DNA of 32,000 nt from Candidatus Nanopusillus acidilobi (GTDB lineage Archaea; Nanobdellota; Nanobdellia; Nanobdellales; Nanobdellaceae), in NCBI GenBank assembly GCA_001552015.1, contig CP010514.1, positions 540,001-572,000 on the forward strand, in the 5' to 3' direction. Positions 481 through 4,905 of the stretch are shown piece after piece (the first letter of the stretch is position 1; every line of letters begins with the position of its first letter). The translations under genes and the position numbers were made by a program. Under the pieces are notes generated by a model. The model was not told the DNA's origin, searched no databases, and was given only the letters and a program-made list of their open reading frames with translations.

Positions 481-2685
481 TTAGTGAACCCCTTCAGGTA
501 TTCCCTTTCTTTTCCTAATAGAATCTATTATTTGCTGTTGTAAATCTTTTGGTACTTTTTCATATACCTGATCTTCTAAGAACCAAACACCCTTTCCAGA
601 TGTTGCAGATCTTAATTCATCTGTAAATCCAAACATATTTGCTACAGGTACTTTTGCTTTAATTGTTGCTCTTTCTTCTTCAATATTCATTTCCAATATT
701 TGTCCTCTCCTTGACTGTAATATAGATGTTACATCTCCAACAGTTTCTGGAGGAGTATCAATTCTTATAACCTGCAATGGTTCATATAATGTTGGTTGTT
801 CAAGAATAGCACTCTTAATTGCATCCTTTGTTGCAGGAATTATTTGAGCAGGACCTCTATGAATTGCATCTTCATGTAATACTGCATCAATCAATTTTAC
901 TTTCATCATTATACCAGGTTCCCATGCTAATGGACCCTGATCCATTACTTCCTTAAATCCTTCTACAATATATTCTATTACTTCTGGTAAATGAACAATA
1001 CCCCTTGTCATATCAATCAATACATTTCCATTTTGTACCATTATAATTCTCCTTGCTTCTTCTTTATCAAATCCAATTTCATTAAATACTTTCCATAAAT
1101 CTTCCTTTTTAATCCTTCCTTCAGGTAATTTTCCTTCTCTAATATATTCCCTCATTTTTTCATATATTTCATATGGTAAAGGCTCAATTTGTATATATAT
1201 TTTATTATGTTTGTTTGGAGATTTCCCTTCATATACTTGTGTAACTCCATTAACAGATTCTCTATAAATTACTATTGGATCTCCAACCTTTACAGGTATT
1301 CCAAAATCGTTTTGTACTCTATATTCTATTATTTGTAAATGCAAATCTCCTAAACCAGATACTAAAATCTCTCCAGTATCCTTTTTCTGTTCAACTTTTA
1401 TTGTAGGATCTTCTCTTGTTAATAGATCCAATGTTTCAATTAATTTTGGTAGATCATTTGGATTCTTAGGTTCAAATGATTTTGTAACTACAGGATCTAA
1501 CCAATGTTTCATTTCTTCAAATGTTTCAACATTTTTTGGATCTTGAACTTTTCCAACAATTGTTTCTCCTGGATATAATCCTCTTATCCCAACTAAGGCA
1601 ATTATATTACCAGCCTTTACAGAATCTACATTTATTCTTTGTATTCCCTTCCATACAGCAACCTGTTGTATTTTTATTTGTTTTCCAGCTTGAATTAAAT
1701 ATACATCATCACCTTTTGATAATGTACCTGAAAATATTCTTGCAGTTGCAATTTCTTGCTTTGATACTTTATCAATTATTACATTTGTTACATTTATTAC
1801 TATTGGTCCATTTGAATCTAAATTTAACATTGCTTTTCCAATATCTGAATTTACATCTCCCTTCCATATATGAGGAATTCTATATTTTTGCGCTTCAATT
1901 GGAGAAGGTAAATGCCTTATAACCATATCTAATACAACTTTTGCGACAGGTGCCTTTTTTCTCATTTCTTCCTTTAATTTCTCTTTATCTTCTGAATATT
2001 GATTATATATTTCAATTACATCTTTAAATGAAACATTGTATTTTTTCATAAATGGTACAGATAATGCCCAATGGAATTTTGCAGATCCAAATGCAACAGA
2101 TCCATCATTTACATTTACATTCCATTTTCCTTTAAATTCTGGAGGAGAATATTTATCAATTAGTCTATTTATTTCAATAACTATTTTTCCAATTCTATCC
2201 ATAATTTGTTGAGGAGATAATTTTAATTCTGTAATTGCTCTATCAGTTTTATTTATGAATAATACTGGTTTTACATATTCTTTTAATGCAGTCCTTAATA
2301 CAGTTTCTGTTTGTGGCATTATTCCATCAACAAAATCTACTACAACAACTGCGCCATCAATCGCTCTAGCAGCTCTAGTAACCTGTCCTGAAAATTCTAC
2401 ATGTCCTGGGGTATCTATTAGATTTATTAAATAATCCTGATTTTCATAAGTATGGACCATTGAAACTGCAGCTCCATATACTGTTATTTCCCTTTCTCTT
2501 TCAGTTTCATGCCACCATGTAAACATTGCCTCACCTGCAAGTTCTTCTGCTAGCATTCCTGCACCTGCTAATAAAGAATCAGTCAATGTCGTCTTTCCAT
2601 GGTGTATATGCGCAATTATACCTATATTTCTTATATTATTTGGATTATCCATAACTTTCAATATTCTTTCAGTTAAACTGGCCAT
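481..2685 (-). CDS. fusA: Translation elongation factor 2 (aEF-2)
   Basis: 734 aa. G1 motif AHIHHGKTTLTD, DTPGHVEF, NKTDR. C-terminal HEDAIHRGPAQ contains the His that is the diphthamide site in EF-2. A TTTTTAAAA TATA-like box lies ~27 nt upstream of the ATG. Confidence 0.97.
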   Translation of the reverse strand: MASLTERILKVMDNPNNIRNIGIIAHIHHGKTTLTDSLLAGAGMLAEELAGEAMFTWWHETEREREITVYGAAVSMVHTYENQDYLINLIDTPGHVEFSGQVTRAARAIDGAVVVVDFVDGIMPQTETVLRTALKEYVKPVLFINKTDRAITELKLSPQQIMDRIGKIVIEINRLIDKYSPPEFKGKWNVNVNDGSVAFGSAKFHWALSVPFMKKYNVSFKDVIEIYNQYSEDKEKLKEEMRKKAPVAKVVLDMVIRHLPSPIEAQKYRIPHIWKGDVNSDIGKAMLNLDSNGPIVINVTNVIIDKVSKQEIATARIFSGTLSKGDDVYLIQAGKQIKIQQVAVWKGIQRINVDSVKAGNIIALVGIRGLYPGETIVGKVQDPKNVETFEEMKHWLDPVVTKSFEPKNPNDLPKLIETLDLLTREDPTIKVEQKKDTGEILVSGLGDLHLQIIEYRVQNDFGIPVKVGDPIVIYRESVNGVTQVYEGKSPNKHNKIYIQIEPLPYEIYEKMREYIREGKLPEGRIKKEDLWKVFNEIGFDKEEARRIIMVQNGNVLIDMTRGIVHLPEVIEYIVEGFKEVMDQGPLAWEPGIMMKVKLIDAVLHEDAIHRGPAQIIPATKDAIKSAILEQPTLYEPLQVIRIDTPPETVGDVTSILQSRRGQILEMNIEEERATIKAKVPVANMFGFTDELRSATSGKGVWFLEDQVYEKVPKDLQQQIIDSIRKRKGIPEGVH

Positions 2686-2798: not shown

Positions 2799-2975
2799 TT
2801 ACTTATTAATTTTTAATTCAAAAGATTTTGCCTGAAATCCTACTTTTCTATGGCTTCCATCACAATAAGGTTTATTTTGTGAATGTCCACATCTACATAA
2901 ATGATATAATACTTCTCCATTCACTGATATTTCATATGGTCCATTTTCATATCCTTTTATTACAATTTCTACCAT
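2799..2975 (-). CDS. CDGSH-type iron-sulfur domain mini-protein (58 aa), not in the ORF track
   Basis: MVEIVIKGYENGPYEISVNGEVLYHLCRCGHSQNKPYCDGSHRKVGFQAKSFELKINK. It contains an exact C-X-C-X2-S-X3-P-X-C-D-G-S-H signature. ATG is the revcomp of 2973-2975 and the stop is at 2799-2801. Confidence 0.8.
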   Translation of the reverse strand: MVEIVIKGYENGPYEISVNGEVLYHLCRCGHSQNKPYCDGSHRKVGFQAKSFELKINK

Positions 2976-3013: not shown

Positions 3014-3613
3014 ATGAGATCTTACTTATATAAAATAATTTTAGGAATTATATCTATATTAATTTTATTTTTTATGCTTTTATTAAATAAAGTAAACTTT
3101 AATAACTATTATGTTTTAAAAAAGACGAATATTACAATAAATAATCAAAATCTATCATTATACTTATTGAATTTATATGGAGAAGGTTGTTATCAATATA
3201 ATATTACAAATGGATATTTTATAATAAAAAATGAAGGACCTGGAATAAATTATATAATACCATTAGTAGAATACATTAATACTACTTCATTTATATTTTG
3301 CAATCAAACATTCTATTATAATATAACAATTGAAGAATGTTTACCAATAAATCCATGCAATATAAAATGCACACCTAGAGAATTATGTCCAATGATAATA
3401 TGCATGGAATATCCATATTGTTCAAATGTAATATATTATATAAATATTACATATCCAATAATAATTGTTAATGATAGTATATTTTTATATAATAATAATG
3501 TTTTTTGTTACTCAGAAAACAATTGTAATATAATTTATCAAATATTACCTAAAAGTTATTTATACAATTTAATATATAATTTAATAAGTTCTATACCAAA
3601 AAATATTGTATGA
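3014..3613 (+). CDS. Membrane-anchored/secreted cysteine-rich protein with many N-glycosylation sequons (hypothetical)
   Basis: 199 aa. It has an N-terminal hydrophobic helix (IILGIISILILFFMLLL), 10 Cys and at least 8 N-x-S/T sequons. Its stop overlaps the next start (ATGA at 3610-3613). Confidence 0.6.
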   Translation: MRSYLYKIILGIISILILFFMLLLNKVNFNNYYVLKKTNITINNQNLSLYLLNLYGEGCYQYNITNGYFIIKNEGPGINYIIPLVEYINTTSFIFCNQTFYYNITIEECLPINPCNIKCTPRELCPMIICMEYPYCSNVIYYINITYPIIIVNDSIFLYNNNVFCYSENNCNIIYQILPKSYLYNLIYNLISSIPKNIV

Positions 3614-4275
3614 AACTTGCAGTATTATATTCTGGAGGAAAAGATTCAAATTATTCATTATATATTGCATCAAAATATCATGAAATATCTGTACTATTAA
3701 ATATAATTCCAAAAAACAATGAAAGTTATTTATATCATTATATTAATAATAATTTAACTGAATTACAATCAAAAGCATTAAATATACCTATAGAAAGATT
3801 TTATATAAATAATGATGAAGAAGAAACATTATTTGAAGCATTAAAATATTTAAAAGAAAAATATAATATTGATGGAATTGTTACTGGAGCAATTAGATCT
3901 ACATATCAGGGATCTAGATTTCAAAGAATATGTAAAAGATTAAATCTATGGTGTTTTAATCCATTATGGTTAAAGGATGAAAAAGAATATTTATATGAAT
4001 TATTAGAAAATAATTTTCAGTTTATAATTGTTGGATGGTATACATATCCTTTAGATATAAATATTTTAGGAAAAATTGTAGATGAAAATATAATAAAAAA
4101 ATTAATTGAATATAAAGAAAAATATAAAATAAATATTGCGGGAGAAGGCGGAGAATATGAAACTTTTGTTTTATATCAACCATTATTTAAGAAAAAAATA
4201 ATAATAAAAGATTATGAAATAAAGGTAGAAAAAAATTATGCAGAATATATTATAAAAAATGCATATTTAAAATGA
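3610..4275 (+). CDS. dph6: Dph6/MJ0570-family PP-loop ATP pyrophosphatase (diphthine-ammonia ligase-like)
   Basis: MKLAVLYSGGKDS PP-loop, GAIRSTYQ..R..ICKRLNL..FNPLW, and GEGGEYETFVL, the hallmark blocks of the COG2102/Dph6 ATP-binding domain. Confidence 0.85.
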   Translation: MKLAVLYSGGKDSNYSLYIASKYHEISVLLNIIPKNNESYLYHYINNNLTELQSKALNIPIERFYINNDEEETLFEALKYLKEKYNIDGIVTGAIRSTYQGSRFQRICKRLNLWCFNPLWLKDEKEYLYELLENNFQFIIVGWYTYPLDINILGKIVDENIIKKLIEYKEKYKINIAGEGGEYETFVLYQPLFKKKIIIKDYEIKVEKNYAEYIIKNAYLK

Positions 4276-4799
4276 TTGGAATAATTCATACAAATAAAGA
4301 AGAACTATCAAAATATGAATTTTTATATCCAATAATAAATATTTTGAAAGAATTAAATATTGATTATAAAGTTCTTTCCTATAAAGATAGAATAAATGAA
4401 TATTTTGAAAAAATAATAATAACTGGTACTGCAATAATGGACTTTGATTATTTAAATTATATAAAAAACTTTGAATTTATAATTGAAAATAATATAAAAA
4501 CCATTGCAATATGTTCTGGAAGTCAAATATTATTAAAATTACTAAATTATGATTTTGAAGATAAAGAATTAATTGGAAAATATTATGTAAAAATAATAAA
4601 TAAAGATAAAATAGTTAATAAAGACTTTGAAGCATATTTTTTAATAACAAAAATTCCAAAGATTAATGAAAAATTTTATATAATTGGAAAGGTTGAAAAT
4701 ATCCCTGTATTGTATAAATATAAAAATATATATTTTTCATTGTTCCATCCAGAAGTTTTAAATAAAGATATAATAATTAATTTTTTAGAATATATATAG
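4272..4799 (+). CDS. Class I glutamine amidotransferase-like protein (GuaA subunit-A-like fold)
   Basis: 175 aa. IIITGT.., nucleophile-elbow-like IAICSGSQILL (compare GICLGHQ) and C-terminal YFSLFHPEV (compare GVQFHPEV, His-Glu of the triad). The start overlaps the dph6 stop (ATGA at 4272-4275). Confidence 0.6.
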   Translation: MIGIIHTNKEELSKYEFLYPIINILKELNIDYKVLSYKDRINEYFEKIIITGTAIMDFDYLNYIKNFEFIIENNIKTIAICSGSQILLKLLNYDFEDKELIGKYYVKIINKDKIVNKDFEAYFLITKIPKINEKFYIIGKVENIPVLYKYKNIYFSLFHPEVLNKDIIINFLEYI

Positions 4800-4800
4800 A

Positions 4801-4855
4801 GCCCCTACTAGGGTAACCTTAGATAGATGAAAAAGGTTGAGTTAGTAGGGGTACA
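4801..4855 (+). ncRNA. Putative H/ACA-box guide sRNA (single hairpin + ACA)
   Basis: GC-rich hairpin in an AT-rich convergent intergenic gap. Lower stem 4802-4810/4843-4851 (9 bp); internal loop GGGT/GAGT; upper stem 4815-4820/4833-4838 (6 bp); 12-nt GA-rich apical loop; ACA at 4853-4855, 14 nt from the upper-stem base. The pocket is complementary to 23S H69 (see findings). Confidence 0.55.
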
Positions 4856-4857
4856 AA

Positions 4858-4905
4858 ATGAAGAAACCGTCCCAGGCTGAAAAATGATGAATTAAAGCTA
4901 ACAGA
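4858..4905 (+). ncRNA. Possible C/D-box-like sRNA module abutting the H/ACA hairpin
   Basis: ATGAAGA (4858-4864, C-like, 1 mismatch) - 12 nt (AACCGTCCCAGG) - CTGA (4877-4880, D') - AAA - ATGATGA (4884-4890, perfect C') - 11 nt - CAGA (4902-4905, D-like, 1 mismatch). Box spacing is canonical for archaeal C/D sRNAs. No target was found in the visible rRNA. Confidence 0.3.

Follow-up and report, generated by a model that had tools for sequence, protein, structure and literature searches.

The window examined here is a stretch of 32,000 nucleotides from Candidatus Nanopusillus acidilobi (assembly GCA_001552015.1, contig CP010514.1, positions 540,001 to 572,000 of the forward strand), whose genome is held in a single contig of 605,887 bp with 23% G+C and is 95% complete. 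It contains two overlapping genes, one encoding the PP-loop enzyme Dph6, which catalyzes the last step of diphthamide synthesis on the translation factor EF-2, and one encoding a small class-I glutamine amidotransferase (GATase). Both had been picked out in an earlier inspection of the letters alone (hereafter the sequence-only reading), which described a Dph6-type open reading frame (ORF) of 221 amino acids (aa) with the blocks SGGKDS, PLW and GEGGEYET, its stop codon overlapping (ATGA) the start of a 175-aa ORF with a nucleophile elbow (AICSGSQ) and a His-Glu motif (FHPEV). All these elements were found at the locus (Table 1). We consider it quite likely that the two genes encode the subunits of a glutamine-hydrolysing diphthamide synthetase, organized like the archaeal GMP synthetase GuaAA/GuaAB.

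The Dph6 protein of the window scored 247.4 bits on the TIGR03679 model (Dph6_archaeal), above its cut-off of 197.3 and over its whole length (profile positions 1-218 of 218). On PF01902, a family of which it is the sole gene in the genome, it scored 205.7 bits. Its SGGKDS, NPLW and GEGGEYET motifs start at residues 8, 117 and 178, respectively, and the PP-loop, NPLW and GEGGE are invariant across an alignment of 32 Dph6 sequences. In the GATase, AICSGSQ carries Cys81 while FHPEV carries His159 and Glu161, and the catalytic triad is intact. The sequence surrounding the overlap of the two genes reads AAAATGATTG (positions 4269-4278).

Table 1. Features of the dph6-GATase locus and its surroundings (positions are those of the window)
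Feature	Position	Strand	Basis
dph6, diphthine-ammonia ligase (PP-loop ATP pyrophosphatase), 221 aa	3610..4275	+	TIGR03679, PF01902
PP-loop SGGKDS of Dph6, residues 8-13	3631-3648	+	
Dph6-associated class-I glutamine amidotransferase, 175 aa	4272..4799	+	AlphaFold2 fold, GuaAA profile match, triad
Codon of GATase Cys81	4512-4514	+	
Codon of GATase His159	4746-4748	+	
Codon of GATase Glu161	4752-4754	+	
ATGA overlap, dph6 stop TGA / GATase start ATG	4272..4275	+	
Cys-rich, membrane-anchored ORF upstream of dph6, 199 aa	3014..3613	+	
58-aa ORF with CxC...CDGSH-type motif, between EF-2 and the dph6 operon	2799-2975	-	
aEF-2, substrate protein	481..2685	-	
Codon of diphthamide target His609 of aEF-2 (HRGPAQ)	859-861	-	

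The structure of the GATase, predicted with AlphaFold2 from a 63-sequence alignment, is a confident class-I GATase fold (pLDDT 97, pTM 0.92). A Foldseek comparison of this model returned 285 matches in the PDB at E<=0.001, the best of which were all class-I GATases, archaeal GuaAA first, with a TM-score of about 0.8. The family profile matched the GuaAA proteins PH1346 and MJ1575 at about 1e-20 and aligned the nucleophile elbow and the His-Pro-Glu motif residue for residue, Cys81, His159 and Glu161 falling on GICLGHQ and FHPEV of PH1346. The predicted fold and the alignment of the triad with solved GuaAA enzymes are therefore in line with the amidotransferase proposed by the sequence-only reading. 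In 63 diverse members of the family, the cysteine is present in 59, the histidine in 62 and the glutamate in all 63; these members are only 30-45% identical to one another, yet more than 90% of them keep the triad. Besides the triad, the family conserves L12, E16, F17, P20, I101, G102, Y122, L124 and N164, and in the profile alignment P20, I101, G102, Y122 and L124 visibly differ from PH1346. Canonical GATases have GG at the oxyanion-strand motif; that of the family reads GT, both residues (G52 and T53) being conserved across it.

We then looked at how widely the pair is distributed. Close homologues of the GATase (43-93% identity), the closest of them recorded under Nanopusillaceae and Nanobdella aerobiophila, all directly follow dph6, in three flank contexts. 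An exhaustive search of 1.84 billion representatives with the family profile yielded 310 cluster representatives at E<=1e-10; almost all measure 165-200 aa, and some 411-470 aa. A related-locus search with a single protein as query returned two loci only. In a sample of 401 genomes of the phylum, 82 contained a full-length match at E<1e-17; the tallies made on this sample, for the GATase family and for Dph6, include the unpublished genomes G243, G244, G321, G332, G359 and G395, on which neither the loci analysed here nor any individual claim depends. dph6 lies directly upstream on the same strand in 60 of the 79 family loci and 0.4-1.3 kb upstream in 5 others. The 4-bp overlap, with the Dph6 stop ending 3 bases past the GATase start, recurs in 28 of 33 tabulated Dph6-linked loci, a count into which the locus of the window and two duplicate places also enter. 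It was also seen in Thermofilum pendens (as GTGA), in assembly GCA_002011075.2, in Nanoarchaeota MC-1 and in a Marine Group III euryarchaeote. Gene overlap alone is common in the compact genome of Nanopusillus, but the pair recurs in many lineages, which indicates that the overlap of dph6 with the GATase gene is more than chance.

In four species of one genus, the two proteins are joined by a linker in single ORFs of 413-440 aa, with Dph6 first. Both PF01902 and PF00117 scored above their cut-offs in the two of these species that were scanned, and the triad motifs are readable in all four. Four further Dph6-GATase fusions (411-470 aa) come from metagenomes. Outside the phylum, the pair is found in Thermofilum pendens Hrk5 (CP000505), in the unplaced assembly GCA_002011075.2 and in the Marine Group III euryarchaeote; it is not specific to DPANN archaea. 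The association of dph6 with the GATase gene is thus widely conserved and sometimes fixed by fusion, and because the pairing is kept or fused in many archaea, glutamine rather than free ammonia is the probable source of the last nitrogen of diphthamide.

In a quick tree, the GATase of T. pendens (locus L050, CP000505, 1040088-1048627) nested among nanoarchaeal sequences near those of Nanopusillus and Nanobdella, with weak support. This position hints at a transfer between hot-spring crenarchaea and nanoarchaeal symbionts.

The sequence-only reading had pointed out that a GuaAB partner encoded elsewhere might claim the GATase. No GuaA C-terminal domain (GMP_synt_C, PF00958) was found in the single-contig, 95% complete genome, and a control search gave matches in 14 of 14 genomes. 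Searches of the genome found no NAD synthase, no PdxS (SOR_SNZ) and no HisF, the lone His_biosynth match being triosephosphate isomerase. The only other PF00117 match in the genome is the glutaminase part of CTP synthase. The GATase reached the cut-off of no NCBIfam model and gave weak matches to PdxT and GuaAA. As a GuaAA it was rejected, with 24 bits on NF001975 against a cut-off of 198, a GuaAB absent from the genome and a separate branch in the tree. PdxT (24.9 bits, cut-off 181) and HisH (16.2 bits, cut-off 105.4) were likewise rejected, their partners PdxS and HisF being absent from the genome.

Other genomes carry the family together with GuaA-type proteins. One of them encodes a fused GuaA (688 bits) together with a family GATase, whose gene is preceded at about 1 kb by dph6 in the same orientation, and in four further genomes the family GATase is accompanied by a second, small GuaAA-like paralogue. 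In a quick maximum-likelihood tree, 41 family rows split from 5 GuaA-type rows and from the PyrG GATases on a branch with an SH-aLRT of 92. This separate branch and the co-existence with true GuaA indicate that the GATase is not a member of GuaAA, although its relatives are found in databases as "GMP synthase (glutamine-hydrolysing)", "glutamine amidotransferase-related" or "hypothetical". It seems that the protein derives from the GuaAA glutaminase lineage and works like GuaAA, but forms a family apart that is dedicated to Dph6.

The association of the two proteins was modelled by complex prediction. The model obtained a score of 0.92, compared with 0.00 for the best of three controls; 58 of 80 solved complexes and 2 of 110 mismatched pairs attain this mark. 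The runs agreed in 100% of the contacts, and the pLDDT of the partners was at least 94. The model thus passes its controls and supports binding of the GATase to Dph6, short of showing it. No Dph6-GATase complex was present among the solved structures that match the GATase model or the family profile; other PP-loop/GATase enzymes have been solved. On the GATase side, the predicted interface comprises the helix 10-23, residues 54-56 (beside the G52/T53 strand), 99-103, 122-126 and 161-163 (next to the catalytic His and Glu). On the Dph6 side, it is formed by residues 19-24, just after the PP-loop, and by residues 98-123, which include Y99/Q100 and FNPLW.

Two comparisons relate this predicted interface to conservation, and their statistics are not fully independent, given that the sequences share a phylogenetic history and that the predictor used the same alignments. 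In the GATase, 11 non-catalytic residues are conserved in the family, and 8 of them fall in the interface (hypergeometric p ~1e-6). A comparison of 32 partnered with 27 unpartnered Dph6 proteins ranked positions by how well they tell the two sets apart; of the best five, four (W114, L121, Y23 and T98) also lay in the interface (p ~5e-4; Mann-Whitney p 0.012). Partnered and unpartnered Dph6 proteins differ mainly at the predicted docking surface, that is, at W114, F116, L121, Y23 and T98.

From these results, the following mechanism can be proposed. Dph6 would bind ATP at its PP-loop and adenylate the diphthine carboxylate on His609 of EF-2. The GATase would dock its active-site face onto the conserved region of Dph6 that runs from Y99/Q100 to FNPLW, next to the PP-loop, hydrolyse glutamine through Cys81, His159 and Glu161, and pass the ammonia, possibly through a channel, to the adenylated intermediate. 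The products would be diphthamide, AMP, PPi and glutamate, and the glutaminase could be gated allosterically by EF-2 or ATP. The two-subunit, glutamine-dependent amidation of diphthine put forward by the sequence-only reading is thus supported by the conservation of the pair, by the fusions, by the missing rival partner and by the predicted complex. We lean, if only slightly, towards a stronger form of this proposal, in which the enzyme is an obligate glutamine-hydrolysing diphthamide synthetase whose glutaminase is on only when ATP and diphthine-EF-2 are present on Dph6, with an internal path for ammonia, and glutamine is the physiological donor in a large part of the archaea.

Within the phylum, Dph6 is not always accompanied by this GATase. 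It is present in 387 of the 401 genomes, in many of them as part of a longer frame, either some 490 or some 700 aa in length. Three of the long frames scanned consist of GAT-II, Asn_synthase and Dph6 domains, and five of Asn_synthase and Dph6; they belong to the AsnB-DUF71 type of fusion reported in 2012 (PMC3541065). None of the 56 listed genomes with long Dph6 frames had a strong match to the class-I family; their weak matches were mostly in frames of about 515-715 aa, and the one frame of this kind that was scanned turned out to be a fused GuaA. The lack of a strong class-I match in long-Dph6 genomes makes the class-I GATase and the AsnB-type fusion look like alternatives. A third group consists of stand-alone Dph6 and includes a genome of 490,885 bp, presumably that of Nanoarchaeum equitans. 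A separate AsnB-like gene beside stand-alone Dph6 was considered and rejected as a general arrangement, being seen at 1 of 18 loci only. Five loci (L098, L099, L100, L101 and L103) encode fusions of about 490 aa between an Asn_synthase-like PP-loop domain and Dph6, with no GAT-II in the protein and none encoded in the upstream flank. Another genome of the phylum carries two adjacent Dph6 paralogues in tandem (L118:727-2180, minus strand).

Several observations weigh against a glutamine-hydrolysing Dph6-GATase enzyme. The GATase of the window scored 20.1 bits on PF00117, under the cut-off of 22.8; since its relatives and the fused forms reach 36-68 bits, it is a divergent member of class I and not a non-member. 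The nucleophilic cysteine is replaced by Gly or Ser in 4 of the 63 family members and the histidine by Ser in one, so that catalysis is not universally required. Most genomes of the phylum are devoid of a class-I partner and stand-alone Dph6 is common, indicating that the partner is dispensable for Dph6 as such. The Dph6 enzymes characterised by Su et al. in 2012 reportedly work with ammonium. No dph6 was present in the flank read at 14 of the 79 family loci, two of them cut by contig ends, and in one genus (L075:62-1618, L085:23-1678 and L088:25-1617) the GATase gene lies away from dph6. The limited independence of the interface statistics has to be added to these points. Finally, the predicted docking site of the GATase overlaps the region of Dph6 modelled in 2012 as contacting EF-2 (Y103/Q104 of PF0828; PMC3541065), and a steric clash between the two is possible.

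The degenerate members of the family (P0011, P0020, P0024 and P0090 for Cys to Gly or Ser, P0008 for His to Ser) have all kept their full length, and in P0008 the coupling to dph6 persists; judged by their sequences, these proteins may be non-catalytic subunits. In the genus that carries the GATase gene away from dph6, its start overlaps the stop of a gene of 519-552 aa in two of the three loci and follows it closely in the third. This neighbour encodes a C-terminal alpha/beta-hydrolase (lipase-like) domain. A shared alternative neighbour was sought at the dph6-unlinked loci and rejected: apart from this hydrolase, confined to one genus, the neighbours were a HAD hydrolase, SIMPL, ASCH or nothing.

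Other explanations of the pair were weighed against this background. The GATase could be a working glutaminase, expressed together with Dph6 but not dedicated to it, that raises the local concentration of ammonia with neither a stable complex nor a channel, also to the benefit of enzymes such as an AsnA-type asparagine synthetase. It is true that roughly a sixth of the family loci have no link to dph6, that a general source of ammonia would be useful to an organism in whose genome no glutamine synthetase or Amt transporter was found, and that Podar et al. classified the homologue of the Nst1 nanoarchaeon under amino-acid metabolism, beside asparagine synthetase (PMC3655853). We nevertheless judge this explanation improbable: natural fusions with Dph6 exist, the 4-bp coupling is kept across phyla, the predicted complex passes its controls, the residues conserved specifically in the family cluster in the predicted interface with Dph6, and the unlinked loci have no common alternative neighbour.

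Alternatively, the GATase could be a structural or regulatory subunit that stabilises Dph6 or helps it to recognize EF-2, its glutaminase chemistry being vestigial. A triad kept by more than 90% of members at 30-45% mutual identity argues against such a loss, as does the exact alignment of the nucleophile elbow and HPE motif with active GuaAA enzymes. The full-length ORFs of the 5 members of 63 without Cys or His, the degenerate Pfam score of the window copy and the family-conserved G52/T53 in place of GG at the oxyanion strand all speak in favour of this explanation, which we hold to be very improbable. An orphan subunit A of GMP synthase (or a PdxT- or HisH-like protein) serving another synthetase, or a decaying remnant carried next to dph6 as a passenger of a compact genome, is hardly credible and already largely refuted. 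Its appeal lies in GuaAA being the closest solved relative, in the name "GMP synthase (glutamine-hydrolysing)" given to relatives, and in the frequency of gene overlaps in the genome, where the ORF upstream of dph6 overlaps it too. However, GuaAB, PdxS, HisF and NadE are absent from the genome, the NF001975 score stays far from its cut-off (24 bits vs 198), one genome carries the family alongside a true GuaA, the family forms its own branch in the tree, and the pair is kept in varied flanks in three archaeal lineages (Nanoarchaeota, Thermofilum pendens and Marine Group III) and fused in several species.

The glutamine-hydrolysing Dph6-GATase enzyme that we favour resembles several known systems. 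The archaeal GMP synthetase (GuaAA and GuaAB; M. jannaschii, P. horikoshii PH1346; PDB 1wl8, 2d7j, 2lxn, 7d40 and 2a9v) similarly relies on an adenylating PP-loop enzyme and, as a separate small protein of about 180 aa, a class-I GATase, and the two systems presumably share the logic of an acceptor that is adenylated and then attacked by ammonia derived from glutamine. They differ in the acceptor enzyme and its substrate, GuaAB and XMP in one case, Dph6 (PF01902) and a protein side chain of EF-2 in the other. The GATase described here moreover has its own conserved residues (L12, E16, P20, I101, G102, Y122 and L124), several of them visibly unlike those of PH1346. In MurT/GatD lipid II amidotransferase, PdxS/PdxT and HisF/HisH, the gene of a small class-I glutaminase also adjoins that of its synthase, on which the glutaminase subunit depends; the folds and substrates of these synthases are unrelated to those of Dph6. 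The oxyanion strand of HisH lies at its interface with HisF. Likewise, the model of the Dph6 complex places GATase residues 54-56, beside the conserved G52/T53, in the predicted interface. By its motifs and its TIGR03679 match, the Dph6 of the window is an ordinary member of the family that includes the stand-alone, ammonia-dependent enzymes (EC 6.3.1.14; MJ0570/PF0828, and yeast YLR143W with its C-terminal RidA-like domains). An enzyme that hydrolyses glutamine would call for an EC entry of its own (6.3.5.-). To our knowledge, it would be the first glutamine amidotransferase with a protein side chain as acceptor.

A link between Dph6 and glutamine is not entirely new. Fusions of AsnB (GAT-II and Asn_synthase) with DUF71/Dph6 were reported in Methanohalophilus mahii, Methanosalsum zhilinae and "Ca. 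Nanosalinarum" (de Crecy-Lagard et al. 2012, PMC3541065), and the authors read this fusion of a class-II GATase with DUF71 as a supply of glutamine-derived ammonia. As in the pair studied here, Dph6 is physically tied to a glutamine amidotransferase in these proteins, which are common in the same phylum. However, the AsnB fusions bring a class-II (Ntn) GATase and an extra PP-loop domain to the N-terminus of Dph6, whereas the GATase described here is of class I, uses a triad, lies downstream of Dph6 or at its C-terminus and comes without an extra PP-loop domain. In the paper on the Nst1 genome, the homologue appears as a putative glutamine amidotransferase (PMC3655853). We found no description of a class-I GATase partner of Dph6 in the literature, and a preprint surveying ATP-PPases makes no mention of Dph6. 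The statement of the sequence-only reading that no glutaminase partner is known for Dph6 therefore holds for a class-I partner and fails for glutamine as the nitrogen source, already proposed in 2012 for the AsnB-DUF71 fusions (PMC3541065); the class-I partner alone is undescribed.

Diphthamide is a conserved modification of EF-2, the translocase, in archaea and eukaryotes, and its last step is catalogued only as that of an ammonia ligase. If our proposal is true, a dedicated glutaminase subunit of class I would establish that the enzyme also exists in a glutamine-dependent form and would resolve the origin of the amide nitrogen in these organisms, and a protein-modifying member would join the ammonia-channelling amidotransferases. 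A widespread mislabel ("GMP synthase", "glutamine amidotransferase-related" or "hypothetical") would also be corrected, and the gene would no longer be counted as evidence of purine synthesis in reconstructions of reduced DPANN metabolism. Thermofilum pendens, a cultured thermophile that carries the pair, offers an easy test system.

The earlier part of the diphthamide pathway was also located in the genome. Dph2 is encoded as two distant pieces (G000:C1:391398-391988 and 575898-576083), as was reported for the related Nst1 nanoarchaeon (PMC3655853), and a Dph5 candidate (TP_methylase) is present. Neither a glutamine synthetase nor an Amt transporter was found in the genome, which suggests that glutamine would come from the host. 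Host-derived glutamine could thus be the nitrogen currency of the symbiont.

The substrate protein EF-2 is encoded near the pair and, as the sequence-only reading had stated, retains the target histidine in HRGPAQ. The EF-2 gene is separated from the start of dph6 by 925 bp, which contain the 58-aa CDGSH gene and the 199-aa ORF. This proximity of about 1 kb, to which the sequence-only reading had also drawn attention, is real in the window and in Nanobdella; as a general functional signal it was rejected, being confined to a synteny block of Nanopusillus and Nanobdella. EF-2 was absent near the pair at six other places (five distinct loci) for which 4 kb of context was read.

The stop codon of the 199-aa ORF overlaps the start of dph6 (ATGA), indicating that this ORF is the first gene of the dph6-GATase transcription unit; a part in the enzyme is not implied by its position. 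The encoded protein has an N-terminal hydrophobic helix and matched no Pfam family. In Nanobdella, an ORF of 196 aa lies at the equivalent spot and also overlaps dph6; no counterpart was found upstream of dph6 in the loci read from other lineages. The 58-aa gene also has an equivalent, a zf-CDGSH gene of 58 aa at the same place in Nanobdella aerobiophila. Directly after the stop codon of the GATase gene, the window shows a G+C-rich stretch (4801-4905).

Finally, the CTP synthase of this genome, encoded outside the window (G000:C1:449329-450899; loci L001, L047 and L048), is in three pieces lying in different frames. Two of them cover positions 1-130 and 129-265 of the N-domain, and the glutaminase forms a separate ORF of 252 aa. 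Either the gene is split or frameshifted, or the pieces reflect sequencing errors.

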